From NCBI GenBank assembly GCA_009779115.1, contig WREX01000001.1, positions 10,878-74,877 on the forward strand: a stretch of 64,000 nt of DNA. The letters run 5' to 3'. The notes beneath the pieces are model-generated. The model made no database searches. It was not told where the DNA came from and worked only from the letters and a program-made list of their open reading frames with translations. Below are positions 11,147 through 56,159 of the stretch, piece by piece. The position numbers were made by a program, and so were the translations under genes. Origin of the DNA: Propionibacteriaceae bacterium. Lineage in GTDB: Bacteria; Actinomycetota; Actinomycetes; Propionibacteriales; Propionibacteriaceae. The first letter of the stretch is position 1, and each line of letters opens with the position of its first letter.

Positions 11147-11147
11147 C

Positions 11148-12146
11148 ATGCAGTATCCCCAACTACGTATCGACGCTGAGATATTGTTCAATGCAGGAAA
11201 CTCATTGAAAAGTGTTTCGGCTGATTTCGGCGAAGCCGGCCAACAGGCCAAGGATGTCGCAGGGCTAGTTGGGCATGAATCGGTGGCACATGCGATCCGA
11301 CAGTTCGCCGACACCTGGGATGACCGCAGGGCAAACATGAAGAAAGCCATCGATTCCCTCGCCGATGCCACAACCCAGATCGGCCAGGCCGTTGTGGACC
11401 TTGATCATCAACTCGGTGATTGTCTGGAGCCTCCTGGCACGGGAGTCCCCGGGCAAATCCCCAAGGAGCCGTATCCAGGACCCAACCCTCCGCCTGGTGG
11501 TCCGTACCCGCCTGGTGGTCCGTACCCGCCTGCTGGACCGTACCCGCCTGCTGGACCGTACCCGCCAGCTGGACCGTACCCGCCTGCTGGACCGTACCCA
11601 CCTGGTGGACCGTACCCACCCAGCGGACCCAACCCGCCTGCTGGACCGTACCCGCCTGCTGGACCGTACCCACCTGGTGGACCGTACCCGCCTGGTGGAC
11701 CGTACCCGCCGGCTGGACCGTACCCGCCTGGTGGACCGTACCCACCCAGCGGACCCAACCCGCCGGCTGGACCGTACCCGCCTGCTGGACCGTACCCACC
11801 CAGCGGACCCAACCCGCCTGCTGGACCGTACCCACCTGCTGGACCGTACCCGCCTGCTGGACCGTACCCGCCAGCTGGACCGTACCCGCCAGCTGGACCG
11901 TACCCGCCAGCTGGACCGTACCCGCCAGCTGGACCGTACCCGCCAGCTGGACCGTACCCACCTGCTGGACCGTACCCACCCAGCGGACCCAACCCGCCAG
12001 TAGGACCATACCCACCTGCCCCCGGACCTGGACCTACTCCTTCTCCGCTGCCCTCTCCACACCCGAACCCACCGGCACCGCACCCGAACCCGTATCCGCA
12101 TCCGTACCCAACGCCTCCACCGGACTCGACTAGACCACCCAGGTGA
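11148..12146 (+). CDS. helical N-terminal domain protein with a roughly 230-aa proline-rich tail, about 175 aa of it (GPYPPA)n hexapeptide repeats
   Basis: ATG 11148 lies 8 nt after AAGGAGG and 1 nt after the upstream stop. The N-terminal 100 aa (LRIDAEILFNAGNSLKSVSADF...WDDRRANMKKAIDSLADATTQIG) look like small helical T7SS-associated proteins. About 29 hexapeptide repeats follow, then a PxP-rich end. Confidence 0.7.
   Translation: MQYPQLRIDAEILFNAGNSLKSVSADFGEAGQQAKDVAGLVGHESVAHAIRQFADTWDDRRANMKKAIDSLADATTQIGQAVVDLDHQLGDCLEPPGTGVPGQIPKEPYPGPNPPPGGPYPPGGPYPPAGPYPPAGPYPPAGPYPPAGPYPPGGPYPPSGPNPPAGPYPPAGPYPPGGPYPPGGPYPPAGPYPPGGPYPPSGPNPPAGPYPPAGPYPPSGPNPPAGPYPPAGPYPPAGPYPPAGPYPPAGPYPPAGPYPPAGPYPPAGPYPPAGPYPPSGPNPPVGPYPPAPGPGPTPSPLPSPHPNPPAPHPNPYPHPYPTPPPDSTRPPR
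11478..12020 (+). repeat. 18-bp tandem repeat array (about 29-30 units), consensus GGACCGTACCCGCCTGCT, encoding GPYPP[AGS]
   Basis: Direct reading shows units in the pattern G A A A A G S/N-A A G G A G S/N-A A S/N-A A(x8) S/N-V A. The variant pair GPYPPS-GPNPPA recurs 4 times. All six frames are open across the array. Confidence 0.95.
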
Positions 12147-12186
12147 GAGCCGACGGTGATGACGGGAATGAGAATCAGGCATCACT

Positions 12187-12229
12187 CGGTGGTGTGTGGC
12201 GACGCACTGCTCATCGCCACACACCACTG
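12187..12229 (+). terminator. strong stem-loop (14-bp perfect stem, 11-nt loop) downstream of the repeat-protein gene
   Basis: GTGGTGTGTGGCGA (12189-12202) pairs perfectly with TCGCCACACACCAC (12214-12227). It lies about 43 nt after the TGA at 12146. No U-tract follows, so it may be a terminator, an attenuator or an mRNA-processing or stabilising element. Confidence 0.5.
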
Positions 12230-12328
12230 TGAATACCAAAATCCGACACGTGGATGGCAGCCGGGCAACCCGACAAACCATCCATCCGACAATCAACGAC
12301 CACTGCGAAACAGTGAAAGAAGCCGATC

Positions 12329-13720
12329 ATGACACACAGAACCAATTGGAAAGTCTTGCGTACAACCGACCCCATGCCCGGAGATGTTCCCGGCATCCGT
12401 GACGCCGCTGATCACTATCAACAGATCACCACAGCCCTGACGACGACCCGTGATGATCTGGACACTGTGATGACTCGCGGATACAGCACAGACATGATCT
12501 CGGAGGCGGTGGACGCGATTCGTCAAACGGCCCAGAAGGTCAGAGACGCGGTGGATCAAGTTAGTGGACGCTACTGTGTTGTAGCGGGAGAATTGCACAG
12601 TTTCGCTACTTCCTTGGATGCGACCCAAACCCAGGCTGACTGGGCCGAAGGAGACGCTCAAGCCGCTACTCAGGCAGTCAAAGAGGCCCAGCAGAATGAG
12701 GCTATCTACAACGACCAGATCAACAAGCTCAAACTACAGATCAAGACCCAACAGCACGATGACCCGACGCAGTCCGACCCCACTACTCTTCAGCGGCTCC
12801 AGGATAAATTGGCTCAAGCTCAGCGACAACTCAGAGAGGTCGTACACGACATTTCTGATGCCCAAGGACGCATCGAAACAGCCTCCAACGACCTAGATAC
12901 CGCACTCGCAACATGGAACACGGCTGCAGAGCAAGTATCCGACACAATCCTGAGTCAACTCCAGTGCGACGGCCTGAATGACACCTGGTGGCTGAACTGG
13001 GGCCAAGACCTCTTCGGGTGGGCAATAGACCTCGCTGATTGGTTTGTCGACTCCATGGCCGAAATCTTGGATGGGATCTCCAAGATGATCGAAGGCTTGA
13101 TGGGCATGCTGGATGCGCTGGAAACGGGAGACCGGGATAAGTTCACGGATGCTTTCTTGGGCATGATGGACGGGTTGTCACTCTTGGCTGGCGCCCTTTC
13201 TAGCCTCCTGGGTGCCATAGCAACTGTTCTGAGTTTTATCCCGGGTTTGCAGGAGGCCGCTTTAGGCTTTAGCCTGGCGTCGGTCATCGTAGCAGGGGTC
13301 CAAGTCCTGGCCGACGTCGTCCTCGCCGCCAATCACAGGAAATCGTGGTCGACTGTGGGAGAGGAAGCGGTTTTAGCATTGGCGGGTGCTGCCCTGCGCG
13401 GACTCTCAGGACCGACCTTCGAAGGTGCCCTGCGTTCGGTTCTCCCCGCAAACGTGGTCAAGACCTTGTTTGCAGATGATACATTTGGCGCTGTCCTGGA
13501 CACATTTGGTACTGGCCTCACGGAATATCAGATTATCAACAATCAAGAATTGAACTACTCCATGCCGTCATTGAACCCCTCCTACGACTGGAGCAATATG
13601 CCTGAAAGTGAACAAGTGGGCATGGCCACCATGTTTGTCGCCGACGCCTATGTGCAATCGGAGGCGACTAGCTGGCGTAACTGGGGCAACACACTCGACA
13701 ACATCAAGAATGACTTCTAA
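12329..13720 (+). CDS. putative T7SS-secreted protein: N-terminal helical targeting domain plus C-terminal small-xxx-small membrane hairpin
   Basis: 463 aa. The N-terminus TTDPMPGDVPGIRDAADHYQQI resembles the actinobacterial putative T7SS secretion-signal domain. Residues 100-215 are coiled-coil-like. Residues 281-335, GLSLLAGALSSLLGAIATVLSFIPGLQEAALGFSLASVIVAGVQVLADVVLAA, form a glycine-zipper-like hydrophobic hairpin. Confidence 0.6.
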   Translation: MTHRTNWKVLRTTDPMPGDVPGIRDAADHYQQITTALTTTRDDLDTVMTRGYSTDMISEAVDAIRQTAQKVRDAVDQVSGRYCVVAGELHSFATSLDATQTQADWAEGDAQAATQAVKEAQQNEAIYNDQINKLKLQIKTQQHDDPTQSDPTTLQRLQDKLAQAQRQLREVVHDISDAQGRIETASNDLDTALATWNTAAEQVSDTILSQLQCDGLNDTWWLNWGQDLFGWAIDLADWFVDSMAEILDGISKMIEGLMGMLDALETGDRDKFTDAFLGMMDGLSLLAGALSSLLGAIATVLSFIPGLQEAALGFSLASVIVAGVQVLADVVLAANHRKSWSTVGEEAVLALAGAALRGLSGPTFEGALRSVLPANVVKTLFADDTFGAVLDTFGTGLTEYQIINNQELNYSMPSLNPSYDWSNMPESEQVGMATMFVADAYVQSEATSWRNWGNTLDNIKNDF

Positions 13721-13738: not shown

Positions 13739-16700
13739 GTGAAGATTCGGCTCACTCTTGCGACGGATGCGGGGCCGCGTGACATTACGGTGACTGCGGA
13801 TGCCACGGCCACCATCGGGGATGTTGCCTCCACTATCCGGCGCAGTCTCGCTTTTCAGGCGGGGCTGGCGCCGGGGGGTAACCCGGGGCCTCGGATGACT
13901 CTTCAGACGCTGTCGGCCACGGGGTTGGTCGAGCGGACGCTCTTGTCGCAGTCCAGTTTGTCGGACGCTGGTCTGTTGTCGGGGGCGACGATCCAGTTGG
14001 TGGTCTTAGACGCCATGCCCTCCCGGATTGACGACCATGCTGGTGCGGCGGCGTACCTGCATATCCTGTCGGGGCCGCAGACGGGACAGGCACTGCCGCT
14101 GCGCTCAGGACCCAACACCATCGGGCGCAGTCCGGGGGCCGACATCACCATCGACGATCCGTTCGTGTCCAGCATCCATGCCCGGATTGTCGTTTCGGAC
14201 CACATCGAGATCATCGACATGAACTCTGCCAATGGGATCGCCGTGGGGTCGGGTCTCGTGGAGCGGTCCAACCTCGAAGCCCATGACACAGTCACCCTGG
14301 GCGACACGAGCTTCCGGGTGGAACGCAACCCATCCGCGGGAGCTTCCTCGTCATGGACGACTTCGATCGAATTCAACCGTTCGCCTCAGATCTGGCCGGC
14401 TTACGCTGGTCGGACCTTCAAGCTTCCCCAGCCTGCCGGACCCACCAAGCCCGGGAAATTCCCCCTGGTCGCCATGGTTGCCCCGCTGATCATGGGAAGC
14501 GTGATGTACCTGTTCACTCACAACATCATGAGCGTCATTTTCGTGGCTCTCAGTCCGCTCATCGCGATCGGGACATGGCTGGACCGCCGGGTCACCGACC
14601 GCCGGGAGAAGAAACAACAGACCCAGCGGTTCCGGGATGAGATCGAGACCGCGTCAACTCAGATCCATCAGGCCCTGGCTGAAGAACAACAGGCCCGTTG
14701 TCAGGAAATCCCTTCCCTGCAAACCTTAGTTGCTTCGGTCTCACAACTGGCCCCCACCCTGTGGCACCGCCGTCCCGATCAGGAGAATTTCCTGACACTC
14801 ATGACCGGGTACGGCACTGCCGCCTCTCGATCAACCGTCGACTTGCCGCAACGTGGCGAAGGCTCCTCACAACTGTGGCAACTCGCCACCGACCTCCAGG
14901 CCCACTCTCAAACAGTCGACAACGTCCCCATCCTCGTACCACTGCGCACAACCGGAAACCTGGGGATCGCAGGGACTCCGGCCTGGCTCGACTCCGTGGC
15001 CTGCGCCATCGTCGCCCAACTGGCCTGTCTGCATTCTCCCGCTGAAGTCGTCATCACTGGAATCGCTTCCGTGGCCTCCTGCCGGCGGTGGAACTGGTTG
15101 ATGTGGCTGCCTCACGTCGGATCGACCCACTCGCCGATCGAAGGGCCCCACCTCGCCACCTCCCCCGCCGAAGTCTCCTCCCTGGTCTCCCGGCTGGAGG
15201 AGTTGTCCGCCAAACGCCGCGAACTGCGACGCGACGCCGCGACGGCGTTGCCAGCCGTCGTCCTCGTGGTGGAGAACGACGCCCCCATCGAGCGGGGGCG
15301 TCTGGTGTCTTTGGCAGAGAACGGCCCTGACACCGGGATACACCTGATCTGGATGACCCCCGAACAGCACGACCTGCCAGCAGCCTGCCATGCGTTCTTC
15401 GTGGAAAACCACAGTGAGCACACCATGCACATCGGTTTTACCCAGGACAACACCTGGACCCAGATCACCTCCTGCGAGACTCTGACACCGGCCGACGCCT
15501 TGGTTGTGGCCCGCAGGATGTCCCCGATCCACGACGCCGGGGCACCGATGATCGACCAGTCCGATCTGCCGCGCGCCATCTCGTACCTCGCCCTGGCAGG
15601 CCCTGAACTCGCGGATGACCCGTCCTTCACTGTGACCCGGTGGAGAGAGAACGGTTCCATCCTCGGCCCGGGGGAACTCCCGCCTTCCTCGGGGAGCAAC
15701 CTGCGGGGCCTGATCGGGCAAGGCGCCCACGGGGAGTTCGTCCTCGACCTGCGTATCCACGGGCCACACGCCCTGGTCGGTGGCACGACCGGCGCGGGCA
15801 AGTCGGAATTCCTCCAGGCCTGGGTCCTGGGGATGGCCGCCGCCAACAGCCCCAAACGAATCACCTTCTTGTTCGTCGATTACAAGGGCGGGGCGGCCTT
15901 CGCGGACTGCATCAAGCTGCCGCATTGCGTGGGTCTGGTCACCGACCTCAGCGCCCATCTGGTTCGCCGGGCTCTGACTTCACTGAAAGCCGAGTTGCGA
16001 TACAGGGAGCACTTGCTGAACGAGAAGAAAGCCAAAGACCTCGTCTCGCTGGAAGCCACCGGCGATCCGGATTGCCCACCCTCGCTCATCATCATCGTGG
16101 ACGAGTTCGCCGCGCTGGCCAAGGAGATCCCCGAGTTCGTCGACGGTGTCGTCGATGTCGCCCAGAGGGGGCGGTCGCTGGGCATGCACCTGATCATGGC
16201 CACACAGCGCCCGGCCGGGGTCATCCGGGACAACTTGCGTGCCAACACCAATTTGAGGATCGCCTTGCGCATGGCGGATGAGACCGATTCCACAGATGTC
16301 ATCGGTACTCCGCTGGCCTCCAGCTTCGACTCGCGTACCCCTGGCCGGGGAGCAGTACGAACAGGCCCGGGCCGTATCGCACTGTTCCAGTCCGGCTATG
16401 CGGGTGGCCAGACGACCAGCGAACCGGAACCGGCACGCATCGACGTGGAGACTCTGTGTTTCGGGGCCGGGGCGCCATGGGAGATCCCGAGCGACCGAGC
16501 ACCAAAACCTCAGCAATCGGGCACCAAGGACATCAGCCGGATCGTCTCCAGTATCTGCCAGGCCGCTGCGATCACCGCCATACCCGAGCCACGTAAACCC
16601 TGGTTGCCCGACCTCGACTCGGCCTATGACCTCGCGACTCTGTTCGCGGCCAGCACCCAGCGAGCGCGCGATACCTCGGTCACGGCTCTCGCTCTGGGGG

Positions 16701-18160
16701 TCATGGACGATCCGGCCAACCAGGCGCAACATCCCGTCTTCTGGAATCCCGATGAGGGCAATCTGGCCATTTATGGGGCTTCGGGCTCGGGAAAGTCCTC
16801 CACCTTGCGGACGATCGCGGTGTCAGCCAGCGTGTTGGCCCAGGTCGCGCGGGTGGATGTTTATGGCTTTGACGCCGGTTCGTCGGGTCTGGCCATGCTG
16901 GAACCGCTTCCTCATGTCGGCGCCATCATCGGAGCTGACGACCACGAGCGGGTCAACCGCCTGCTGCGCCGGTTGATCCAGACCCTCGACGAACGCGCGG
17001 ACAAGTTCGCTGCCGTTCGAGCAGGCAGTCTGGCCGACTACCGGCGCATCAGCGGTGACCAGACCACCGCCAGGATCCTCCTGCTGATCGACGGATTCGC
17101 CGCGTTCAGGGACATGTACGAGAACACCGTCGGAACGGCCCAACCGTACTCGATGCTAGCCAGGGTCTTGTCGGAAGGGCGTTCGGTGGGAATCCACGTG
17201 GCCCTGACCGCTGAAAGACCGAACGCCATCAACACCGCCCTGGCCGCCAGCATCCAGAAGAGACTGGTCCTCAAGCAGGCGGAGGAAGCGACGTACGTGC
17301 TGCTGAACATCGCCAAGGACATCCTCGACCCATCCAGTCCCCCCGGACGCGGGGTGTTCGCCGAAGACACCAACGAGATCCAGATAGCGGTCCTCAACGC
17401 GACGTCCGACACCGAGAAGCAAGCGGCGTCGATCGACTCGCTGGCCAAGTCGATGACACAGGTCGGCATCGTGGCGGCGCCGGGAGTGGAACGGTTGCCG
17501 AGCCTGATTCCGATCGGCCAGGTCCCGACATCTGTGGGCGGGCAACCAGTGTTGGGGGTCCGGGAAGACACGTTGGAACCGATCGGTTTCAGGGCCGAGG
17601 GAACCTTCGTCGTCGCGGGCATGCCAGGTACAGGGCGCACCACTGCCCTGCGCTATTTGTGCCATGCCCTGCACCGTTGGGATCCGCGGGTCCCCAAGTA
17701 CTACATCGGTCCGAGCCGGTCCGCCCTCCACGCCGAGACCATCTGGGCGGATCACGCGAGAACCGAGGAGGAGATCGCGGAGTTGTGCACCGACATTCTT
17801 CCTTCCCTGGAACGTCCAGCAGCGGGCATACCTGGTGCGGTGCTCGTCTTGGAGGCCTTGACCGAATTCATTGGATCCTCGGTGGAGAATCCCATCGTCG
17901 GTCTCATCCGGGCGGCCCGCCGCAATGGGCATCTGGTCATCGGCGAAACCGAGACTGCTGGTTGGGGATCGGCGTGGCCACTGATCTCTGAGATCAGAAA
18001 CGGACGCCGGGGCATCGTGCTTCAGCCCGACCAGGCGGACGGTGACGGGCTGTTCCGGGTGGCTTTCCCTCGCGTCAAGCGGGCCGACTTCCCCGTGGGA
18101 CGCGGAATCAGCGTGGATGCAGGCAAGTCATGTACGGTCCAGATTCCGCTGCCGGACTGA
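13739..18160 (+). CDS. essC: EssC/YukB-like type VII secretion ATPase: Ubl(beta-grasp)-FHA-2TM-3x FtsK/SpoIIIE
   Basis: GTG start 13739, 8 nt after GGGGAG. Residues 1-90 end in the YukD/EccD-like signature LSDAGLLSGATIQLVV. FHA spans residues 105-195. TM helices are FPLVAMVAPLIMGSVMYLF and IMSVIFVALSPLIAIGTWL. There are three P-loops: GTTGAGKSE, GASGSGKSS and GMPGTGRTT. Confidence 0.9.
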   Translation: MKIRLTLATDAGPRDITVTADATATIGDVASTIRRSLAFQAGLAPGGNPGPRMTLQTLSATGLVERTLLSQSSLSDAGLLSGATIQLVVLDAMPSRIDDHAGAAAYLHILSGPQTGQALPLRSGPNTIGRSPGADITIDDPFVSSIHARIVVSDHIEIIDMNSANGIAVGSGLVERSNLEAHDTVTLGDTSFRVERNPSAGASSSWTTSIEFNRSPQIWPAYAGRTFKLPQPAGPTKPGKFPLVAMVAPLIMGSVMYLFTHNIMSVIFVALSPLIAIGTWLDRRVTDRREKKQQTQRFRDEIETASTQIHQALAEEQQARCQEIPSLQTLVASVSQLAPTLWHRRPDQENFLTLMTGYGTAASRSTVDLPQRGEGSSQLWQLATDLQAHSQTVDNVPILVPLRTTGNLGIAGTPAWLDSVACAIVAQLACLHSPAEVVITGIASVASCRRWNWLMWLPHVGSTHSPIEGPHLATSPAEVSSLVSRLEELSAKRRELRRDAATALPAVVLVVENDAPIERGRLVSLAENGPDTGIHLIWMTPEQHDLPAACHAFFVENHSEHTMHIGFTQDNTWTQITSCETLTPADALVVARRMSPIHDAGAPMIDQSDLPRAISYLALAGPELADDPSFTVTRWRENGSILGPGELPPSSGSNLRGLIGQGAHGEFVLDLRIHGPHALVGGTTGAGKSEFLQAWVLGMAAANSPKRITFLFVDYKGGAAFADCIKLPHCVGLVTDLSAHLVRRALTSLKAELRYREHLLNEKKAKDLVSLEATGDPDCPPSLIIIVDEFAALAKEIPEFVDGVVDVAQRGRSLGMHLIMATQRPAGVIRDNLRANTNLRIALRMADETDSTDVIGTPLASSFDSRTPGRGAVRTGPGRIALFQSGYAGGQTTSEPEPARIDVETLCFGAGAPWEIPSDRAPKPQQSGTKDISRIVSSICQAAAITAIPEPRKPWLPDLDSAYDLATLFAASTQRARDTSVTALALGVMDDPANQAQHPVFWNPDEGNLAIYGASGSGKSSTLRTIAVSASVLAQVARVDVYGFDAGSSGLAMLEPLPHVGAIIGADDHERVNRLLRRLIQTLDERADKFAAVRAGSLADYRRISGDQTTARILLLIDGFAAFRDMYENTVGTAQPYSMLARVLSEGRSVGIHVALTAERPNAINTALAASIQKRLVLKQAEEATYVLLNIAKDILDPSSPPGRGVFAEDTNEIQIAVLNATSDTEKQAASIDSLAKSMTQVGIVAAPGVERLPSLIPIGQVPTSVGGQPVLGVREDTLEPIGFRAEGTFVVAGMPGTGRTTALRYLCHALHRWDPRVPKYYIGPSRSALHAETIWADHARTEEEIAELCTDILPSLERPAAGIPGAVLVLEALTEFIGSSVENPIVGLIRAARRNGHLVIGETETAGWGSAWPLISEIRNGRRGIVLQPDQADGDGLFRVAFPRVKRADFPVGRGISVDAGKSCTVQIPLPD
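14051..14324 (+). other. FHA domain of the EssC-like ATPase, with a canonical phosphothreonine-contact set
   Basis: YLHILSGPQTGQALPLRSGPNTIGRSPGADITIDDPFVSSIHARIVV...NSANGIAV...TLGDTSFRV. The G-R, S-x-x-H and N-G positions are all retained. Confidence 0.8.
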
Positions 18161-19061: not shown

Positions 19062-20762
19062 TCAGGCGACAGCACAACGCCTCGTTGTGTCCGATGGTAC
19101 CCCGTGACGGACGACTTGCACGTCAAGACAAACGTAACTGTCCTGCTCAGGCCAAGCCACCGTGACCGTCGTCTGATCCGTGATTTTAGCGGTGACATCG
19201 GTCGACCCGTCGACGGTGTAACGGTATTGATCACCCTCCTGGGGGTCCGGATTGACCCAGGTGAAGACTGCATCACCCGAAGAATCGTGGGTGCCGGTCA
19301 GATCGGTGACTGCTTGGGGGATGGTGGAATTCACGATGGGATTGTGGGGTGTGGCGGAGGTGGTGGTGGCATCGGGAGGAGGGGGCACGTCAGGAGCGCC
19401 GTGGAGAACCACGACGACCACGGTCACGGCAACAGCGATGATGACGACCGCGAGGGCGACCACACCCCATCGGCGTTTCCCGGGTGACTTAGGCGACCGT
19501 GGCTGAGCAGTCACCGATTCCGCAGGCTCAGGGTGGTCCAGAGTCACCGGGCGTACTTGGGTGGGATCGAGCAACCCGCCGAAGTCCACAGCGGTCGTCG
19601 GATAGGCCGGGTGGGCCATCTTGGAAGTGTTTTTCCTGCCAGGAACCTCGGAAATGGGCAATGAGCCCATACTTGCTAGTGGCAGGTCCTTGACTGGGGC
19701 ATGAGCCACGTCGGTGGCCTGTGCCACCCCCGGGAGGTGGGCCGGGTCGGGTTCCAAGGTGGGATCGATGGTCTGCTCAATGTGGGGGTCGATCACAGTC
19801 AATGGGCGCAGACTCGTCCCCGCTGTCTCGTCATCGCCGATCCGGTCATCGCCGTCAGAATCCTCCAGGATGTCCATCTGGGTCGCCGGCAGGTGGAGTT
19901 CGGCTTCGACCTCGCGCAGGGCCATGCCGAAGGCCTTCATGGAGGGATACCGGGCCTGCGGCGACTTGGCCATGGCAGTGGACAAGACCTGATCCAAGGA
20001 GGCGGGAGCGTCAACCCGGCCGAGCGGGCGGTAGGGAGCATTGCGGATCCTGTCGATCATCACATGTTGCCGATTGTCTCCACCGGGAATCTCGAAGGGG
20101 GGCCTGCCCGTCAGCAAAGCGTACATGGTGGCTGCCAGGCTCCAGATGTCCGATTGGCGGGTCGGACGAGGATTCTTGTCGAAGGACTCGGGCGGGCTCC
20201 ACGGGATCGACATCCCCTGCGCGCCTCCCCTGGAAGCCTCGACATCCGTCATGGCGATACCGAAGTCGCCGAGGACCGGGCGGGAGAAGCGGTCCATCAG
20301 AATATTGGCTGGCTTGACATCCCGGTGCAAAATCCCTTGTGAATCAGTCCCCAGGCCCGGACTCGTGTAGCGATGGGCCGACTCCAAGGCTCCAGCCAAC
20401 TGGATGCCTATCTTGAGGACATTGGCCAAGGACCACCCAGTCTTGCGCAGTCCCTGGGACAGGGCGGCACCCGGGTAGTACTCCATCACCAAGTACGGGC
20501 GCCCGTCCATCGCGACCCCGGAGGAAAAGACTGTCACGATGTTCTGGTGTCCGGACAACCCGGCCATGGCGTCGGCCTCTTTGTTGAGCCGGGCGGCTGC
20601 TTGGCTTCCCGCCATGTCGGCGTGCAAGACCTTCACGGCGACCTGGCGGTGCGGAGTGTCTTGGGAATACAAGTACACGTCGGCGAACCCACCGTGTCCG
20701 AGATCGCGCAGGTAGGAGAAACCGGGAATCTGCGGTGGGGCCTCACGCCGGGTCGAACTCAT
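19062..20762 (-). CDS. Hanks-type Ser/Thr protein kinase, single TM, FN3-like extracellular domain
   Basis: Kinase motifs are LGHGGFADVY, VAVKVL, HRDVKPANIL, DFGIA, SPPE and DIWSLA. A Pro-rich linker follows, then the TM helix WGVVALAVVIIAVAVTVVVVVL. The ectodomain is about 110 aa (AVTDLTGT..AVFTWVNPDP..GDQYRY). Confidence 0.92.
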   Translation of the reverse strand: MSSTRREAPPQIPGFSYLRDLGHGGFADVYLYSQDTPHRQVAVKVLHADMAGSQAAARLNKEADAMAGLSGHQNIVTVFSSGVAMDGRPYLVMEYYPGAALSQGLRKTGWSLANVLKIGIQLAGALESAHRYTSPGLGTDSQGILHRDVKPANILMDRFSRPVLGDFGIAMTDVEASRGGAQGMSIPWSPPESFDKNPRPTRQSDIWSLAATMYALLTGRPPFEIPGGDNRQHVMIDRIRNAPYRPLGRVDAPASLDQVLSTAMAKSPQARYPSMKAFGMALREVEAELHLPATQMDILEDSDGDDRIGDDETAGTSLRPLTVIDPHIEQTIDPTLEPDPAHLPGVAQATDVAHAPVKDLPLASMGSLPISEVPGRKNTSKMAHPAYPTTAVDFGGLLDPTQVRPVTLDHPEPAESVTAQPRSPKSPGKRRWGVVALAVVIIAVAVTVVVVVLHGAPDVPPPPDATTTSATPHNPIVNSTIPQAVTDLTGTHDSSGDAVFTWVNPDPQEGDQYRYTVDGSTDVTAKITDQTTVTVAWPEQDSYVCLDVQVVRHGVPSDTTRRCAVA

Positions 20763-22282
20763 GCCAACTCCTCGATCGTGACCATCAGGTCGTGGCTGAG
20801 GAAGTAGACGTCCTTTTCTTGGGCGATCTCCTGCTGCCCGTCAGTCAGACGGCGGTCGGGTTGCCCGACCCGGCGCAGAATGGTCCCGTTGCGGCCCAGA
20901 CTGGTCACCAGGACACTCCAATCCTCCAGGTCGACCCTCAGGTGGGTCGCCGACACATGGGGATCCTCGACGGTGATCAGGTTGGGGATGTCCAGGTTGG
21001 AGAACCGGGTCGCTTCGGGGCGGCGGCCGATGACGAAGGGATGGTCGATGGGCCTCACATCTCCCCCCGGCAGTTTCAGCCTTCCCAGGATCGGTCGCGG
21101 CACTTGAGTGGCATCGACATCCAGCGGGGAGTCACAGAACCGGCAGGTGACTCGCCGGGTCGAGTTGGCGCTGTGACACCGTGGGCAGATCCGCGCCGAG
21201 ACCATGGGGCCCGCCGGGGACGGAACTGGGCTGGCGGCCACCTGGTCGCCGACCCAGGTGTGGGTGGTCATTCCGTCGTGATCAGTGGAGGGACCTTCGC
21301 CAAAACCCGGTGCCGACATCACCGTCATGCCATCGTGGTCATCCTCGTCCTCGTACGGTTGGTTCGTCCTCGCCAGCCCTGGGTCGTACGCCGGTCCGCC
21401 AGGTGGCGGGGACATGGTCAGTTGAGTCTCGGCGGCGCTTTGAACAGGAGCAGTGGAAGCGGGATTCCCCAGGTCAGGATTCCCAGGGTCGAGATTCTCC
21501 GCTGCCTGATTCGCTGCTGCTGGGCCCTCGAAGAAGGACCGGTACAACGTGGTGTAGTGCAGGTCTTGCTCGTCACGGGATTGGACAGGGGCAGGTGGGG
21601 TACCCGACGGCGGAGTCACTGGTTCACCCTGCGGCGAGCCTGGGTGGGGAGGAGCAGCGGGACCATGGGCCGGGGGCGGGACAGCCGGTACTGGCGACAC
21701 CGGGGCCGCATGACCGGCTGGATTGGACTGCTCACCCTGGGCAGCGACCGCCGCAGGTGAAGGGGTGTCTGGCACATTGAGGGCCGCCAGTCCAGTGCCT
21801 GGGGTACTGGTCACAACACTGTGGACAGGGGCGGAGTCTGACCAGTCCCCTCCCCCCGGGAGCATGTCGATGCAAGAGACTGGCACGATGCCGTCGTTGA
21901 GCACCCAGGAGGGCAGGCCGCCGTCTTCGTCGGCAGCCACACTGAGCTGACTGGGGGCAAGAATCCTGTCTTCTTTCCAGGTCAGGACGTCAGCGCCGCT
22001 GATCAATACTGGTCCCCCAGTGGTCATCGCGCGTACTGACAATGGACCGCGTACTGCGATGTGGATGCCGCCGGATTCGGGCACGGCGATGGCGAAGGCG
22101 GGCAAGGCCGTCAGGTCCGCCGCCGCGTCGCCGACCATCCGCTGGAGGAGCTGGGCGAAACCGCTTCCACTGCGCAGGGCTGCCCATACCGACGTCACCT
22201 TCTCGCCGGTTGAGTCCGGTGCGAGGATGACACAGCCAGATCCCGACACCAGGCCGTACCATTGTCCCGTCGCGTACCTCAT
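20759..22282 (-). CDS. FHA domain protein with zinc ribbon and long Pro-rich linker
   Basis: Start at ATG 22282 overlaps the PP2C stop (ATGA); the ORF track extends to 22534. Zinc ribbon: CPRCHSANSTRRVTCRFC. C-terminal FHA: VIGRRPEA...SATHLRV...GRNGTIL. Confidence 0.8.
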   Translation of the reverse strand: MRYATGQWYGLVSGSGCVILAPDSTGEKVTSVWAALRSGSGFAQLLQRMVGDAAADLTALPAFAIAVPESGGIHIAVRGPLSVRAMTTGGPVLISGADVLTWKEDRILAPSQLSVAADEDGGLPSWVLNDGIVPVSCIDMLPGGGDWSDSAPVHSVVTSTPGTGLAALNVPDTPSPAAVAAQGEQSNPAGHAAPVSPVPAVPPPAHGPAAPPHPGSPQGEPVTPPSGTPPAPVQSRDEQDLHYTTLYRSFFEGPAAANQAAENLDPGNPDLGNPASTAPVQSAAETQLTMSPPPGGPAYDPGLARTNQPYEDEDDHDGMTVMSAPGFGEGPSTDHDGMTTHTWVGDQVAASPVPSPAGPMVSARICPRCHSANSTRRVTCRFCDSPLDVDATQVPRPILGRLKLPGGDVRPIDHPFVIGRRPEATRFSNLDIPNLITVEDPHVSATHLRVDLEDWSVLVTSLGRNGTILRRVGQPDRRLTDGQQEIAQEKDVYFLSHDLMVTIEELA

Positions 22283-23091
22283 GATTGGTCTTTCTCGCCG
22301 GACTGGCCGCCGTCTGCCAGGCCCATCGTGTCGTCGACAGTGGCCCCGCCCGGATCGCCCGCGAAATCCTCCACGTCCACGATAACGACCGACACGTTGT
22401 CGCGCCCGCCCGCGGCCAGGGCGGCGCTGACCAGTTGGGTGACAACCTCGTGGGCCGGGAGCGGTTGGGTGACGATGCGGGCGATCTCGGTCTCGGTCAG
22501 CTCTGTGGTCAGCCCGTCCGAACAGATCATCCACCGCCCAGGACCCATGACCGGAATGAGCCAGTAGTCGGGCCGCTCGACGGTGCGCGCTCCGAGGACC
22601 CGCGTGATGACATTGCGCCGGGAGTACGTCCGGGCTGAAACGGCGTCCAAACGTCCCGCCTCGATCATCTCCTGGGCTTCGGAGTGGTCCACGGACACCT
22701 GGTTGACCGTGTCACCGACGACACGGTAGGTGCGCGAATCCCCCAGATTGATCACCAGCCAGTACGGCCAGCCGTCTTGTCGCACCAGCACGATGCCGCT
22801 GACCGTCGTACCGGCCGCCCTCCACGTGTGCGAAGCCTCCAACGAGTCGATGCTCCAGCGGGCCCGGGTGAGGGCGTCACGGACATCTTCGACGCTGGGG
22901 TCGGCGCCCAGTTTGCTCATCTCATCGATCACGATGGCACTGGCACGGTCACCGGCGTCGTGGCCGCCCATGCCGTCGGCCACGATGAACACAGGGCGTT
23001 CGGCCAAGACGGCGTCCTCGTTGAAGGCACGGCGGTGGCCGATGTCGGTCGCGGAGGCGACACTGAGTTTCACATCATCCAGGACAGTCAT
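22279..23091 (-). CDS. PP2C-family Ser/Thr protein phosphatase
   Basis: ATDIGHRRAFNEDA, VADGMGGHDAG, a GDSR block and a C-terminal DNVSVV. These match PPM/PP2C motifs. Confidence 0.92.
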   Translation of the reverse strand: MTVLDDVKLSVASATDIGHRRAFNEDAVLAERPVFIVADGMGGHDAGDRASAIVIDEMSKLGADPSVEDVRDALTRARWSIDSLEASHTWRAAGTTVSGIVLVRQDGWPYWLVINLGDSRTYRVVGDTVNQVSVDHSEAQEMIEAGRLDAVSARTYSRRNVITRVLGARTVERPDYWLIPVMGPGRWMICSDGLTTELTETEIARIVTQPLPAHEVVTQLVSAALAAGGRDNVSVVIVDVEDFAGDPGGATVDDTMGLADGGQSGEKDQS

Positions 23092-23804
23092 GACTCTCGG
23101 GCCCTCTCAACATGGAATCGTCTGCGTCCCAGGATCAGGGTGTCACCGATCGACAGTCGGACCGGTTCTCCGGGAACCAGGTGGAGGGGCAGGCTCCCCA
23201 TCCGTACAAGATCCGTACCATTGGTGGATCCTCGGTCCTTGAGCCATAACCCCTGGTCATCAAGGCCATACTCGGCGTGGGTCTTCGACAAGGACCGCTC
23301 CGGGTCGTCCACTGCCGTACACACCACGGACGGGTCTGGCGACTCCGGGTTGCGTCCGACCAGGCCGTGGCTGCTCACGTGGATGCGTTGGCCGGTGTCG
23401 AACACCAAATCGATGCTGAGGCTGTCCACGGCAGGGGTGGCCATCGGGGGCCCCGCCACGGCTGGCCGGTCCATCACTGGTCCCGGACGAGGCCCGGTCC
23501 ATCCGCCCGGGGCCAAGACCGTGGAGGCCACGGCGGCCACCGCCGCAGTGGGAGGTGGGCAGACAGCGGTCAGCTGAGTTTGTCCTGTGCGCACGGCAGG
23601 CTCGGGTCGCGGTGTCGACGCCGGTTGAGCCGCCTGGGAAGGGTTGCCATCAGCCTGCCCGTGGTCGAAGAACTCCGGGGTCCTGGTCCCCGGGACATCC
23701 CAGATCAGGAAACCAGCTGGATTCGAGGGGACGGACCGCCCGCAAGCAGGGCAGGCGACGGCTGACTCGGGGATCTGAGCCCCACACTGAGGACATGATC
23801 GCAT
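23088..23804 (-). CDS. FHA domain protein with N-terminal zinc ribbon
   Basis: Start at ATG 23804, 2 nt below the upstream stop; the ORF track extends to 23942. Zinc ribbon: CPQCGAQIPESAVACPACG. A Pro-rich linker follows. FHA: LVGRNPES...SKTHAEY...STNGTDL. Confidence 0.8.
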   Translation of the reverse strand: MRSCPQCGAQIPESAVACPACGRSVPSNPAGFLIWDVPGTRTPEFFDHGQADGNPSQAAQPASTPRPEPAVRTGQTQLTAVCPPPTAAVAAVASTVLAPGGWTGPRPGPVMDRPAVAGPPMATPAVDSLSIDLVFDTGQRIHVSSHGLVGRNPESPDPSVVCTAVDDPERSLSKTHAEYGLDDQGLWLKDRGSTNGTDLVRMGSLPLHLVPGEPVRLSIGDTLILGRRRFHVERARES

Positions 23805-23806
23805 TC

Positions 23807-26101
23807 CTACGGCCCTCCCGGGATCGTGACGGTCGGTTTGGCGTGCCGACGCAAGGATGTCACTGCGATCCTGGCCCGGAATCGCCGCCACCAGGATCGT
23901 GTGTGCCCGAGGTCCGCGGCCGCCAAGACAGCCTGCTGCCACAGAGCATCGGCCTGGGCTGGAGTCGGGGGCGAGGCGCTGAACGTGCCAAGATCGGCTG
24001 CATCGGCCAGCGCATTCATCGTACCCAGAGCAAAAACGCTGGACACGATCGTGGCCGCTTGTCGCCGAGTGGCGGAAGCCGGGATCACAGTGCCGAGGTC
24101 CGCCGCCCGGTCGAGGATCTCCTGCCAGGCGAAGGCCATTCTCCAGGGCAAGCGTGCGTCGGTTCTGCGCCGAGTTCTGCGGGCTGACTTCCAGACGATG
24201 ATGACCACCATCGGCCCCACAATCACGATGAGAGGCACGGCGCCCATCCCGACCAAGGCCAGTACAGTACGCCAGGCGATCGAGTGGTGCTGTTCCTTGT
24301 TTTGGTCCTTGTTCTGCGAGTCAGGATCGGCTTGCAGAGACTGGTCGTCGTGCGAGGTCGTCGATGGCGGAGGCTGGAGGATCTGCGGTTTGGGCTTGGC
24401 TTTCGACTGATTCAACTGTTGCTGGGGTTGTTGGTTCTTGTCGGGTGTGGGGAAAAAGGCGTACCAGCCGACTCCGTCGAAGGGAACCTCCACCCAGGCA
24501 TGGGCATCCGACCCCTTGACCGACCAGGTTGTGCCGTCGAGCGTGGAATCGGCATCGGTTCTGAATCCCATGACCACACGGGCCGGGATCCCGATCTTCA
24601 TCAGCATCAGGGCAGCAGCAACGGCGTATTGCTCATCGTCGCCAACCATCCTGGAGGGATCGGCCAAGAGCTTGTCGATCCGGTACGACGAATGCCCGGG
24701 CAGGGAAGGATCCTCGGATTCCAGGCCGTGGGAGAAGTACCCGGTCGTCCGCAGCGTGCCGACGATGTCATTGACCTGGTCCAGGGCCGAGGTGTCCTCG
24801 CCTGTCCACTGGACCGCCAGCGCCCCGACAGAATCGGGAACCCATTGCGGGGCTGGCAAGGTCACTCGGGCGACAGGTGTTGCCGCAGTGGGAGTCGCCG
24901 TGGGGATCAGAGACTGGACCGTGTACGACGTCCCCGCCGACAGCCCCGTCGGGTCGATCAGGCAGTCCGACTGCGGGTTGTAATACAGCGATGAAGACAG
25001 ATCCTCGGCTTGAGGTCCTGTGAAGGTGAGGCTCCGGTTCTGGCTGAGCGACGGAACCCACACTCCCGAGTAGTCATCGTCCGTGACCGTGACCGTCACC
25101 GGCTGCCCGGGGGAGGGTGCGGGTGAATCGCCCAGATCCGGTCCGACCCGGTCGTAGCGGGAGGCTCCGGTCGCCTCGCCAACGTTGTAGACCATGCCAT
25201 CGTAGGTGTCCATCACGGCCAGGCGCAGCAAGTCATCCTGGCTCCATCCATCCACAGTGAACAAGACATCGTCCTTCTGCGTGTCGACCAGGTTCCGGAA
25301 GGAGATCAAGGGGCTGGCGAAAGCCGTCAGGTCCAGAGGCGGGACAACATGCTTGCGCAAGACATCCCGGTCGATTCCCGTGCAGAGCGCCGGTCCCGCC
25401 ACACCGGCCACCAGAGTGGCCACGCCGAACAGGACCCCAGCCTTGGCCAGCCAGGCTCCCCCGGCCAGGGACGATGGGCGGCGAGTTGCGGACATGGCGC
25501 CGGTGGCCTGGTGGTTACGCCAGACAATCCAGCAGACGCTGACCAGCGACAGGACCACCGACTGGACGGTGGGGAAGAAAGCGTTCGACGTACCCAACAG
25601 GATCACCAGCGCGGTCAGGGCCGCCACCGGGATCAGCGCGACTCCGGGGTGGCGAGCCCGCCAGGCTGCTGAGAACGCGGCCACCGAGGCCACCAGTGTG
25701 AGGATGAAGGGCACGAGCATGAAGGGATAGAAGCTGGCTACCGGAGTTGTGGCGGTGACGAACTGCCGCCACACCGACACTGAGGAGAAAACCAGCGTCT
25801 TCAGACACGCGAGGTTGGGAGCCAGCTGGGCGATTCCCCGGCTCCACAGAGCGGCAGCCGTGCCAAAGACGAAGTACGACACCACTGTCGCCACGGCCAT
25901 CGTGAAGGTCGACCACCGTCGCCAGGCCCCCAGCCAGGCGGCCCCAGCTCCGACGAGGATGCCGAAGACCACTGGCCGGATGAAGCCCGGCCCACCGAAC
26001 ACTGGCCAGAACCCCGCCAGCCCCGCCGCCAGCAAGACCATCACCGCAACGGCGTCGACCGCTGCCGGCCATGTCAGGGTTCGGGGCTTCACTGCTGGCA
26101 T
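23807..26101 (-). CDS. transglutaminase-like domain polytopic membrane protein (TgpA-like)
   Basis: Six or more N-terminal TM helices. The TGase core reads GDDEQYAVAAALMLMKIGIPARVVMGF...DAHAWVEV...FFPTPD, followed by a C-terminal TM and tail. The position normally holding the catalytic Cys is Asp. Confidence 0.8.
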   Translation of the reverse strand: MPAVKPRTLTWPAAVDAVAVMVLLAAGLAGFWPVFGGPGFIRPVVFGILVGAGAAWLGAWRRWSTFTMAVATVVSYFVFGTAAALWSRGIAQLAPNLACLKTLVFSSVSVWRQFVTATTPVASFYPFMLVPFILTLVASVAAFSAAWRARHPGVALIPVAALTALVILLGTSNAFFPTVQSVVLSLVSVCWIVWRNHQATGAMSATRRPSSLAGGAWLAKAGVLFGVATLVAGVAGPALCTGIDRDVLRKHVVPPLDLTAFASPLISFRNLVDTQKDDVLFTVDGWSQDDLLRLAVMDTYDGMVYNVGEATGASRYDRVGPDLGDSPAPSPGQPVTVTVTDDDYSGVWVPSLSQNRSLTFTGPQAEDLSSSLYYNPQSDCLIDPTGLSAGTSYTVQSLIPTATPTAATPVARVTLPAPQWVPDSVGALAVQWTGEDTSALDQVNDIVGTLRTTGYFSHGLESEDPSLPGHSSYRIDKLLADPSRMVGDDEQYAVAAALMLMKIGIPARVVMGFRTDADSTLDGTTWSVKGSDAHAWVEVPFDGVGWYAFFPTPDKNQQPQQQLNQSKAKPKPQILQPPPSTTSHDDQSLQADPDSQNKDQNKEQHHSIAWRTVLALVGMGAVPLIVIVGPMVVIIVWKSARRTRRRTDARLPWRMAFAWQEILDRAADLGTVIPASATRRQAATIVSSVFALGTMNALADAADLGTFSASPPTPAQADALWQQAVLAAADLGHTRSWWRRFRARIAVTSLRRHAKPTVTIPGGP

Positions 26102-27486
26102 CAGACCTCCAGGGACCGCATCATCCGTGGCAGCTGGTTCAAGCTGCCCAGAGTTAACACCGCAGAGTCGCCCAAGCTGCTGCGGCCCATGGGAACGGCG
26201 ATCTCACACCGCAGAACGACGGTCAGCACATCGACACCGAACCGCGAGCAGGCGGCGTGCAACCGGCCCGGTTCGACCTGTGTTCCCGTGATCACCATGG
26301 CCGCCGACGCGTCTGGAGAGGCGTTCGCGGCTTCGAGTGCAACCGCTTCCACCGGCGGGATCCGGTCAGCCAACTCCAACCGTGAGAAACCATCCAGCAT
26401 GATCATCCCGGTGACGGTGTTCAGAAAGCCTCCCGGAACGGCAATGGTCAGGTCCTTCTCCTGAAGGATCGCCTGCTGGCCCAGGGACGCGGCGACGGAC
26501 ACGGCCAACTCGAAATCCGCCGCGCTCGCATAATCCGATGAACAACCGGACAAGCAGACGACCAGGTGGGAACGACGGGTTTCCTCGAACTGGCGCACGA
26601 CCAGCCTGCCCGTGCGGGCGGAGGTCTTCCAGTGGACGTGTCTCAGGTCGTCGCCCACCACGTAATCTCGCAGCGCGTGGAAGGCGATGTCCGAAGAGGA
26701 CAAGGTGTCGGTCGGCCGGCCCTCCAAATCCCTCAGGAACCCAGCCGACGAGTCCGCCAAGGAGACGGTCCTCGGGTGGATGAACAACTCCTGGACCTCA
26801 GTCCACTTCTGCTCCCGCCTCAACAGCCCCAGCCCGTCGCCGCGCGAGGATCGTACTGGCCCGAGAGGGACGACCGCCCGCTGGCTGGTGTCCACCCCGA
26901 AGGACTCGTAGAAAGAATCGTGGCCGGTCAGGTGGCCGACATCGAAGACCCGTGTGGCCTGACCGATGGGTACGAGGAAAACCGAGGGGCGCAAGCGTCT
27001 GGCCGATGTGTTGCGCACCGTGAGCCCGCCGTGGGCGTCGTCGCCCACCCGGACCCTCAACCGGGTCATGTCGACCTGGACCGAATACGAGACCCTGCCG
27101 AGGACGAAGTAGACCGAACCCACCACCAGGACGAGCAAGAACAAGCCAATGACCAAGAATTCATGCCAGTGCAGCCAGTCCCCCACCGCCAGGGCTGCCA
27201 CGACCACCGCGATCACCACCCAGCCGATGGGCTGGATGATCCCCAGAATGGGCCGGGCCTCCTCGACCGCCGGGCGGAGGTACCGGCCCACAGTCTGTGC
27301 GCCACGGCGTACTGGAGACCAGAGGTGTGGCGCTTGGTCCAGCACCGGTCGACGATCTAACGCCAGTCTGGAGGGCGCCCTCGACCAGGGCGCTGCATCG
27401 CTGGCGTGGGCAGCCTTCACCCGGCCGGCCGGTCGCGGCGACCGGCCCCGGCCCGGCACTGCCCTGGTGGGAACGGGAGGAGTCAT
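26101..27486 (-). CDS. DUF58 (vWA-like) domain protein, MoxR partner
   Basis: Two TM helices near the N-terminus. The DUF58 hallmark ALRDYVVGDDLRHVHWKTSARTGRLVVRQFE is present. A 4-nt overlap with MoxR and a 1-nt overlap with the TGase gene. Confidence 0.85.
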   Translation of the reverse strand: MTPPVPTRAVPGRGRSPRPAGRVKAAHASDAAPWSRAPSRLALDRRPVLDQAPHLWSPVRRGAQTVGRYLRPAVEEARPILGIIQPIGWVVIAVVVAALAVGDWLHWHEFLVIGLFLLVLVVGSVYFVLGRVSYSVQVDMTRLRVRVGDDAHGGLTVRNTSARRLRPSVFLVPIGQATRVFDVGHLTGHDSFYESFGVDTSQRAVVPLGPVRSSRGDGLGLLRREQKWTEVQELFIHPRTVSLADSSAGFLRDLEGRPTDTLSSSDIAFHALRDYVVGDDLRHVHWKTSARTGRLVVRQFEETRRSHLVVCLSGCSSDYASAADFELAVSVAASLGQQAILQEKDLTIAVPGGFLNTVTGMIMLDGFSRLELADRIPPVEAVALEAANASPDASAAMVITGTQVEPGRLHAACSRFGVDVLTVVLRCEIAVPMGRSSLGDSAVLTLGSLNQLPRMMRSLEV

Positions 27487-28454
27487 GGGGTGATCCCGGT
27501 GGTGGGAACGGGCACTTCGGCGAGGACCCGGTCGATGACCAAAGCGGCAGTGACACCGGCGAATTCAGCCTCGGGGTCGAGGATGAGCCGGTGGTCCCAC
27601 ACCTGATGCGCGAGGTCTTTCACATCGTCGCAGGTGACATAAGGCCGCCCTTGGGAGGCCGCCCACACTTTCGCCGTCCTGGTCATGGCCAGAGCCCCTC
27701 GTACTGAGACTGCGATGCGGGTCTGCTCACTCGCGCGGGTCTGCTGGGCCACCGTCGCGATATAGGTCAGTACGGCATCCGCGACGTGCACTGTTGTGGC
27801 GAGATCGGCCATTTCCGCCACTTTGTCGGCGGGGATGACCGGGGAGACCAGAGAGGAACGGTTCTTCACCGCCGCTCCCGACAGGATTTCGACGGTATGG
27901 GCCATGTCCGGGTAGCCGATGGAGGTCTTCATCAAGAAACGGTCTAACTGCGCTTCGGGGAGGCGGTAAGTCCCGGCTTGCTCGATCGGGTTCTGGGTCG
28001 CGATGACCATGAAAGGGCGGCCCACCTTCCGCGTCACGCCATCGACGGTGACCTGGCCCTCCTCCATGACTTCCAGAAGAGCCGACTGGGTCTTGGGCGA
28101 CGCGCGGTTGATCTCATCGGCCAGCAGAATGTGGGTGAACACCGGCCCGGGCAGGAATTCGAAGTCGCCTTTGCGCTGGTCGAAGACTGTCACGCCTGTG
28201 ACATCGGTCGGCAACAGGTCGGGGGTGAATTGGATACGCTTGCTCGTCCCAGCGACGGTGGCCGCCAGCGCCCGGGCCAATTGAGTCTTGCCGGTGCCCG
28301 GGGCATCCTCCAGGAGGATGTGGCCCTCGGCCAGCAGGGCGGTGACCGCGTAGCGTACTTCGCGGTCCTTGCCCAACACGGCCTTGCCAACGTTGGCGAC
28401 GATTTGGGTGACAGCCTGGGCGAACCACTGGGCTTCATCGGGAGTCATGGTCAT
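27483..28454 (-). CDS. MoxR-family AAA+ ATPase
   Basis: Walker A: LLEDAPGTGKTQLA. Walker B: ILLADEINRASPKTQSALLEVMEE. The overall size of 323 aa fits the family. Confidence 0.95.
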   Translation of the reverse strand: MTMTPDEAQWFAQAVTQIVANVGKAVLGKDREVRYAVTALLAEGHILLEDAPGTGKTQLARALAATVAGTSKRIQFTPDLLPTDVTGVTVFDQRKGDFEFLPGPVFTHILLADEINRASPKTQSALLEVMEEGQVTVDGVTRKVGRPFMVIATQNPIEQAGTYRLPEAQLDRFLMKTSIGYPDMAHTVEILSGAAVKNRSSLVSPVIPADKVAEMADLATTVHVADAVLTYIATVAQQTRASEQTRIAVSVRGALAMTRTAKVWAASQGRPYVTCDDVKDLAHQVWDHRLILDPEAEFAGVTAALVIDRVLAEVPVPTTGITP

Positions 28455-28510
28455 GGGTCACGATGTCCTTTCCGGGAGATATCGGCGAGGAGTCGCCAGG
28501 GTTGCCGTTG

Positions 28511-51485: not shown

Positions 51486-51663
51486 CAACACGACACCCGT
51501 GACACCAGTCAGTCTGAGATACCACAATCAGCTAGCTGCCTCAACGAATCACACGTAGTTGGTCTGGGTTCCAATGGCCTGGATCACAGCGACCGGCCAG
51601 TCGTACGAAACGACATGACCGAGTTCTGTCCTCGGGGCCACGCACCCGTACTGACAAGCAATG

Positions 51664-56155: not shown

Positions 56156-56159
56156 GGCT

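Follow-up and report, generated by a model that had tools for sequence, protein, structure and literature searches.

A 64,000-nucleotide stretch (the window) of contig WREX01000001.1, from an uncultured Propionibacteriaceae bacterium, encodes a 566-aa membrane Ser/Thr kinase beside a set of type VII secretion system (T7SS) esx genes. This protein is most probably the transmembrane kinase of an Esr-type cassette in its Esx-linked form, and acts as a regulator of secretion rather than as an obligatory structural subunit of the apparatus. Esr is the ‘epibiont sensing and response’ pathway of Schaalia odontolytica (Wang et al., bioRxiv 2026, PMC13622651), and by gene content and order the kinase is equivalent to EsrE of that pathway and to Pkb2 of the bifidobacterial PFNA operon. 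A sequence-only reading of the same DNA had instead proposed that the kinase could fill the structural role of the T7SSb pseudokinase EssB/YukC while still signaling. Neither the gene family nor the comparison with EssB is new to the literature, and the likeness of active T7SS kinases to EssB in topology has been in print since 2024 (Garrett et al., PMC11217815).

The kinase and its operon

The kinase gene and the parts of its product are as follows.

19062-20762, minus strand: membrane Hanks-type Ser/Thr kinase (EsrE/Pkb2-type), 566 aa, ATG start (open reading frame (ORF) list, Pfam, PDB, NCBIfam and an AlphaFold 2 (AF2) model)
about 19893-20723, minus strand: kinase domain
about 19470-19865, minus strand: disordered Pro/Asp/Thr linker
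about 19401-19469, minus strand: transmembrane (TM) helix
about 19065-19400, minus strand: beta-sandwich ectodomain

By its motifs, the protein is a canonical, catalytically complete PknB-like Hanks kinase. Pfam Pkinase matches it with E = 9.6e-33, Mycobacterium tuberculosis PknB heads its PDB sequence matches at about 1e-27, and the Stk1/PknB family, which matches the kinase domain only, is its top NCBIfam match; a Propionibacteriaceae metagenome-assembled genome (MAG) is recorded as encoding the identical protein. Every hallmark of a Hanks-type kinase was found: the Gly-rich loop (GHGGFA, residues 22-27), the beta3 Lys (K44, in VAVK), the alphaC Glu (E62), HRD with the catalytic Asn (HRDVKPAN, 146-153), DFG (166-168) and an APE-type motif (SPPE, 189-192). 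The sequence-only reading had noted most of these motifs, and all of these residues proved to be invariant in an alignment of 120 homologues. Selection therefore acts on catalysis in this family, a point against an EssB-like structural role.

The AF2 model, built from an alignment of 28 homologues, has the EssB-like topology that the sequence-only reading had described. A kinase domain (residues 1-300, pLDDT ~90) is followed by a disordered linker (302-420) rich in Pro, Asp and Thr (19, 14 and 12 in 132 residues), a single TM helix (432-454) and an ectodomain (481-566, pLDDT ~90). The kinase domain adopts the bilobal fold, with Foldseek TM-scores of 0.8-0.88 to PknB, PknE and Stk1. The ectodomain, previously called FN3-like, is modelled as a small seven-strand beta-sandwich, for which that name is a plausible description; it finds no support in sequence, however, as the ectodomain has no Pfam fn3 match even at E<=10 and the FN3 region of the adjacent giant protein was matched by hhalign with a probability of only 0.5%.

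The family-specific motifs GGFADV and GMSIPWSPPE are kept across the homologues, as is the ectodomain, in which W502 and the pair C545/C563 are invariant. Thr172 of the activation loop is almost invariant (108/120 homologues), and T294 (in a TxxD context) and T316 are invariant just past the kinase domain, in a linker that is otherwise divergent. Just ahead of the catalytic loop the window kinase carries an 11-residue insertion, YTSPGLGTDSQ (residues 132-142; 20337-20369, minus strand), which is shared only with its closest relatives and is a gap in >80% of the 120 homologues.

The kinase is the next-to-last gene of a long minus-strand operon. The other genes are given below in operon order, with the kinase standing between the last two.

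28511-34612, minus strand: giant EsrA/FN3-like surface protein of 2033 aa; signal/anchor at the N-terminus, and repeats of Big_9, cadherin-like and fn3 type
27483-28454, minus strand: MoxR AAA+ ATPase (AAA_3, E = 8e-62)
26101-27486, minus strand: DUF58 protein, vWA-type partner of MoxR (Pfam)
23807-26101, minus strand: TgpA-type membrane transglutaminase (EsrD/Tgm-like; Pfam)
23088-23942, minus strand: zinc-ribbon and FHA protein (Pfam, NCBIfam)
22279-23091, minus strand: PP2C-family phosphatase (EsrF/PrpC-like; Pfam), translationally coupled on both sides
20759-22282, minus strand: EsrG-like FHA protein with a disordered region (FHA, E = 0.0011; architecture compared with EsrG, PMC13622651)
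18317-19033, minus strand: ‘p243’, 238 aa, directly 3' of the kinase, starting about 25 nt past it with its own ribosome-binding site; no match in Pfam, NCBIfam or PDB

Consecutive genes overlap by ATGA or TGATG at most junctions between MoxR and the kinase, among them the ATGA by which the stop codon of the EsrG-like FHA gene overlaps the kinase start. The kinase is therefore co-translated with the sensing cassette and convergent to the esx genes, an arrangement that does not favor a structural subunit of the secretion system. The zinc-ribbon-FHA protein probably starts at the ATG right past the transglutaminase stop, near 23804. The C-terminus of the giant protein is not hydrophobic and contains no TM helix. 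p243 combines an FHA-like N-terminal half, in which the Ser that would bind phosphate is missing, with a basic C-terminal half, and it is kept beside the kinase in loci L001-L007. Three of these, L003, L004 and L007 (from Microbacterium and a Propionibacteriaceae MAG), have membrane proteins with RDD domains flanking the PP2C and the kinase, at the places taken in the window by the zinc-ribbon-FHA protein and p243; L007 encodes a single fusion protein with RDD, zinc-ribbon and FHA domains.

The operon has the gene set of two published systems. The components of Esr are the Ig-repeat surface protein EsrA, MoxR, a vWA protein, the transglutaminase EsrD, the kinase EsrE, the phosphatase EsrF and the FHA output protein EsrG (PMC13622651). 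In the window, MoxR, vWA/DUF58, transglutaminase and giant Ig-repeat protein lie at 23807-34612, and the PP2C, the kinase and an FHA output protein with a disordered region are in the same cluster. Like the Esx-adjacent Esr2, the window cassette adjoins esx genes, as do 40% of 3502 Esr loci, and the FHA domain fused to the secretion ATPase of the window is matched by EsrG proteins that are often fused to EccC (PMC13622651). Both are found in Propionibacteriales and Actinomycetales. The window locus differs in its extra zinc-ribbon-FHA protein and p243, and a motif search of the whole 64 kb found no AesB-type GYVNP motif.

The PFNA operon of Bifidobacterium reads pkb2-fn3-aaa_atp-duf58-tgm-prpC-hyp-fha (Nezametdinova 2018; PMC10688814), and so shares with the window a kinase, an FN3 giant protein of ~2000 aa, a MoxR AAA-ATPase, a DUF58 protein, a transglutaminase, a PP2C, a hypothetical protein and an FHA protein. 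According to evidence cited in PMC10688814, Pkb2 is catalytically active in vitro, where it autophosphorylates and also acts on the MoxR ATPase as a substrate. PFNA has been described as specific to Bifidobacterium and read as a host-cytokine sensor with no link to a T7SS (PMC10688814). Its exact gene order recurs in many loci of the kinase census described below.

Distribution of the kinase, the cassette and the ATPase

The esx operon of the window ends in a gene for a secretion ATPase with ubiquitin-like (Ubl) and FHA domains, and two censuses addressed the company kept by the kinase and by ATPases of this type. For the kinase, one genome per species was scanned with the kinase alignment, which yielded 80 loci from many actinobacterial families. 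These were scored by tblastn with the window proteins, and counts were restricted to the 52 loci flanked by 9 kb or more in each direction. The cassette (MoxR plus DUF58 or the giant protein) was present in 48/52 loci. The EssC-like ATPase was present in 13/52, always together with the cassette (ATPase without cassette, 0/52), and 35/52 had the cassette but no ATPase within 10 kb, many of them in PFNA gene order. The relatives recovered include an S. odontolytica MAG locus (L085) and Bifidobacteriaceae homologues (P0035 and P0073), and the gene arrangement of the window is the same in seven independent loci with close kinase homologues (Propionibacteriaceae and Microbacterium).

For the ATPase, metagenomes were scanned with an alignment of its N-terminus, and 18 of the 80 loci obtained had adequate flanks and were counted. 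Kinases were called by tblastn and by a catalytic-loop motif scan, which found a kinase in L147 that tblastn had missed. A kinase was present in 8/18 Ubl-FHA-ATPase loci and absent from 10/18. In nine of these ten, the ATPase comes immediately after genes for the surface protein, MoxR, DUF58 and transglutaminase, and both kinase and PP2C are missing; in the tenth the ATPase is on its own. ATPases of this type thus have the kinase as a facultative neighbor only, and such an add-on does not belong among the core subunits of the T7SS. The obligate co-occurrence with an EssC-type ATPase that characterizes EssB is not seen from either side, with 35/52 kinase loci free of the ATPase and 10/18 ATPase loci free of the kinase, and these counts do not support the structural EssB role advanced in the sequence-only reading.

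The census also bears on p243, which is present in 12/13 ATPase-linked kinase loci vs 11/39 unlinked ones (Fisher p = 6e-5, uncorrected for phylogeny). This enrichment suggests a physical adaptor, and p243 may be a candidate for that function between kinase and ATPase.

The best sequence and structure matches of the kinase (PknB, PknA and Stk1) could also be taken to mean that it is a generic PknB-like housekeeping kinase, concerned with the cell wall or division, that lies near secretion genes by chance. The protein has no PASTA domains, however, its start and stop codons overlap cassette genes, the cassette accompanies its homologues across many actinobacterial families, and both its family-specific motifs and its ectodomain are conserved. 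A chance neighbor is contradicted by this conserved gene context; the explanation was rejected and is regarded as extremely improbable.

A second architecture, consisting of the giant surface protein, MoxR, DUF58, transglutaminase and then the Ubl-FHA-ATPase, with no kinase, was observed in L108, L111, L115, L117, L118, L121, L124, L127, L130, L143, L144, L154 and L166. These loci, most of which comprise ~10 kb of sequence, have no PP2C, save a possible one ~5 kb downstream of the ATPase in L127. A variant locus in a Bifidobacteriaceae MAG (L168, 993-10624) encodes, in this order, a kinase, an unannotated protein of p243-like size (258 aa), a second kinase, an RCC1/WD40 beta-propeller protein and the FHA-ATPase.

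Comparison with EssB/YukC and other T7SS kinases

As a core structural subunit, the kinase would correspond to an active EssB/YukC: it would dock on the FHA domain of the ATPase and scaffold the membrane complex, and it would signal as well. Its topology would suit such a role, as EssB/YukC (PDB 4ANN, 6Z0F and 9QKS) has the same N-in single-pass arrangement with a cytoplasmic kinase fold. The partner ATPase has an N-terminal FHA domain and a ubiquitin-like element in both systems, and these are the elements that hold YukC on YukB in Bacillus subtilis (PMC12637312). The window ATPase is more EssC-like than EccC-like, the kinase adjoins it in all close relatives, and kinases of this kind are listed as components of T7SSc, T7SSd and T7SSe (PMC11217815). 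As the sequence-only reading had stated, there is no EssB-like ORF: at the level of Pfam and NCBIfam, none of the sizeable ORFs of the 64-kb window encodes EssB/YukC, EssA, EsaA, EccB, EccD, EccE or MycP.

The kinase differs from EssB in further respects besides the gene counts and operon structure already given. The catalytic motifs are intact and invariant in the kinase family but degraded in EssB, the beta-sandwich ectodomain contrasts with the helical one of EssB (PMC3694306), and the FHA domain of the window ATPase is phosphothreonine-competent by its residues, unlike those of EssC. In S. odontolytica, moreover, EsxA and EsxB are still secreted when Esr2 is inactivated by deletion of esrA2 (PMC13622651). 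A structural role for the kinase is therefore considered improbable.

A special affinity between EssB and this kinase clade, whose absence the sequence-only reading had named as a refutation of its proposal, was not apparent as far as profile methods see; the likeness does not extend beyond the generic kinase fold. Pfam YukC (PF10140) does not match the kinase at E<=10, and a Foldseek search of the PDB with the kinase model gave PknB, PknA, PknE and Stk1 first, with EssB/YukC absent among the 50 matches listed. The S. aureus EssB query sequence, which matches PDB 4ANN with two substitutions, was aligned with the kinase family by hhalign at a probability of 0.2%. An EssB profile of 107 sequences was then used, taken from a HMMER search of 1.84 billion representative proteins that returned 155 proteins at E<=0.001, nearly all full-length matches being EssB-like in length. 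The hhalign probabilities against this profile were:

full set of 120 Esr-type kinases: 21%
subsamples of four Esr-type kinases: 7-27%
window kinase by itself: 3.4%
control set of four actinobacterial kinases that lie near neither a cassette nor an ATPase: 3.8%
each of these controls taken individually: 0.9-21.6%

All of these values are insignificant, and those of the Esr kinases and the controls overlap.

A further comparison is offered by the systems T7SSc to T7SSj defined by Garrett et al. 2024 (PMC11217815). The kinases TscD, TsdD and TseD described there are, like the window kinase, membrane Ser/Thr kinases with a conserved active site and EssB-like topology. They lie beside a WXG100 gene and an FHA-ATPase (in T7SSd and T7SSe; the T7SSc ATPase is without FHA), often with a PP2C and extra FHA proteins, and TsdD is listed as a ‘core component’ of T7SSd. 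The T7SSd and T7SSe ATPases have phosphothreonine-competent FHA domains, for which control by phosphorylation was suggested (PMC11217815). T7SSd is also actinobacterial, with a giant Ig-repeat protein and no YukD ORF, and the window is an actinobacterial locus that combines a WXG100 protein, a phosphothreonine-competent FHA-ATPase, a membrane kinase and a giant Ig-repeat protein. However, a helical extracellular region is ascribed to TscD and TsdD whereas the ectodomain of the window kinase is all-beta, MoxR, DUF58 and transglutaminase are not among the listed T7SSd components, and the giant protein of the window has no C-terminal TM helix. The link to T7SSd, compared by description, is a partial resemblance. 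These comparisons suggest that PFNA of bifidobacteria, the ‘core components’ of T7SSd and Esr of oral Actinobacteria, known from three separate bodies of literature, may be the same or closely related cassettes; for PFNA and Esr the basis is the content and order of the genes.

The esx operon and a proposed route from kinase to ATPase

The operon convergent with that of the kinase comprises the following features.

9376-9672, plus strand: WXG100 (EsxA-like) protein, 98 aa (WXG100, E = 2.8e-17)
9669-13720, plus strand: four ORFs (199 aa; 293 aa; a Pro-rich (PAGPYP)n protein at 11145-12146; 463 aa)
13739-18160, plus strand: EssC/EccC-like T7SS ATPase, 1473 aa, with Ubl domain, single FHA domain, TM helices and FtsK-type ATPase domains; last gene of the operon
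13739-14008, plus strand: ubiquitin-like domain of the ATPase (residues 1-90; Foldseek)
about 14051-14329, plus strand: FHA domain of the ATPase, phosphothreonine-binding residues intact

The top NCBIfam match of the ATPase is the firmicute EssC family (TIGR03928; 553 bits, below cut-off), ahead of EccC. In its FHA domain GR 129-130, S144/H147 and N165-G166 are invariant among 12 diverse homologues, and the best NCBIfam FHA matches are the phosphothreonine readers FhaB/FipA and OdhI; the EssC FHA domains of T7SSb are without these binding residues (PMC11217815). Because the ATPase FHA domain keeps the canonical phosphothreonine-binding residues, a link from the kinase to the secretion ATPase through this domain is credible, and it agrees with the published work on Esr2 (PMC13622651).

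Residues 1-90 of the ATPase are predicted to form a beta-grasp domain, whose top Foldseek matches are the Ubl domains of EccD from ESX-5 and ESX-3, followed by ubiquitins (E ~1e-4). The underlying AF2 model was built from four sequences and has a mean pLDDT of 50; the first 90 residues (~70) are usable and the FHA part is not. A profile search of the first 100 residues against PDB sequences gave nothing significant and the N-terminus has no Pfam YukD match, so that the putative ubiquitin-like assignment comes from Foldseek. Garrett et al. 2024 (PMC11217815) reported that T7SSd, alone among the variants, lacks a YukD-like gene; should the ATPases of T7SSd begin in the same way, the Ubl that seems to be absent may be fused to the ATPase.

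Most probably, the kinase conveys a surface signal to FHA readers, that of the ATPase among them, by phosphorylating Thr. In the proposed route, the giant protein, the MoxR-vWA-transglutaminase module and/or the small kinase ectodomain would sense a surface event, and the kinase would thereby be activated. The kinase would then autophosphorylate, with T172 in the activation loop and T294/T316 past the kinase domain as candidate sites, and would also phosphorylate Thr residues of the EsrG-like FHA protein, within its disordered region. The resulting phosphothreonines would be read by the cassette FHA domains and by the FHA domain fused to the ATPase, so that secretion of some substrates would be gated post-translationally, and the PP2C would reset the switch. 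The targets and the effect on secretion in this scheme are drawn from gene context and from Schaalia, in which Esr1 signaling involves Thr phosphorylation of EsrG1 and remodels transcription, and the Esx-adjacent Esr2 is needed post-translationally for export of AesA and AesB but not of EsxA and EsxB (PMC13622651).

The transcriptional action of Esr1 through phospho-EsrG1 (PMC13622651) raises the alternative that the kinase signals to transcription only, by way of EsrG-like, zinc-ribbon-FHA and/or p243 outputs. The ATPase FHA domain would then be no target, and adjacency to esx genes would reflect co-regulation. The presence in the cassette of zinc-ribbon FHA proteins and of p243 with its basic half would fit such outputs, as would the absence of the ATPase from most kinase loci. 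It would not explain why the ATPase FHA domain keeps every phosphothreonine-binding residue, unlike T7SSb EssC, nor the enrichment of p243 in ATPase-linked loci, and it is at odds with the post-translational action of Esr2 in Schaalia. A purely transcriptional role is thus possible, but unlikely. Still less weight is given to a reading in which the Esx-linked kinase, perhaps with p243, would dock through pT294/pT316 on the ATPase FHA domain as a phospho-switchable assembly factor. Were that so, the locus would present a working, regulated version of the T7SSb EssB-FHA-YukD scaffold, and possibly a picture of the ancestral state.

Some points weigh against the kinase being a regulator of secretion and not a structural subunit. 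Only esrA2, and not the kinase, was deleted in Schaalia (PMC13622651), so that the kinase may also contribute structurally to the machine. No known membrane partner of a T7SS is encoded in the window, the membrane proteins noted in the locus beyond the ATPase being the kinase and the TgpA-type transglutaminase, and there is accordingly space in the apparatus for the kinase or for membrane proteins of the cassette. The substrates of the kinase, and the binding of kinase-made phosphothreonine by the ATPase FHA domain, are inferred. Finally, both censuses cover ~10 kb around the genes, and their loci are phylogenetically non-independent.

If the kinase is indeed a secretion regulator of the Esr type, the locus would be one more case of a widespread actinobacterial design, in which a surface threat sensor is connected to a T7SS ATPase via Thr phosphorylation and FHA domains. 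Such a design resembles the switching of type VI secretion by PpkA and Fha1. In the PpkA-PppA-Fha1 pathway type VI secretion is turned on post-translationally, upon an envelope or contact signal, by a Hanks kinase of the membrane acting with a PP2C and an FHA reader. The kinase, PP2C and FHA-reader logic is that of the window cassette, whereas the secretion system is unrelated and the sensor is TagQRST and not MoxR-vWA-transglutaminase. The Agrobacterium case of this pathway is cited in PMC11217815.

The four ORFs between the WXG100 and ATPase genes are likely chaperones or substrates, and the 463-aa protein has a weak T7SS_signal match. The protein at 11145-12146 (plus strand) is likely an Esx substrate: it begins with a helical domain that resembles WXG proteins and continues with ~35 PAGPYP-type hexapeptides in tandem. 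The flanks of the locus contain menaquinone, sugar-metabolism, zinc-uptake and cell-wall polysaccharide genes. Among these, glycosyltransferases with WsaF-like, DUF2142, DUF7657 and DUF7654 proteins at 49518-62466 look like a cell-wall polysaccharide locus; the cluster lies about 15 kb from the cassette, and in Schaalia the Esr pathway induces cell-wall polysaccharide genes (PMC13622651).

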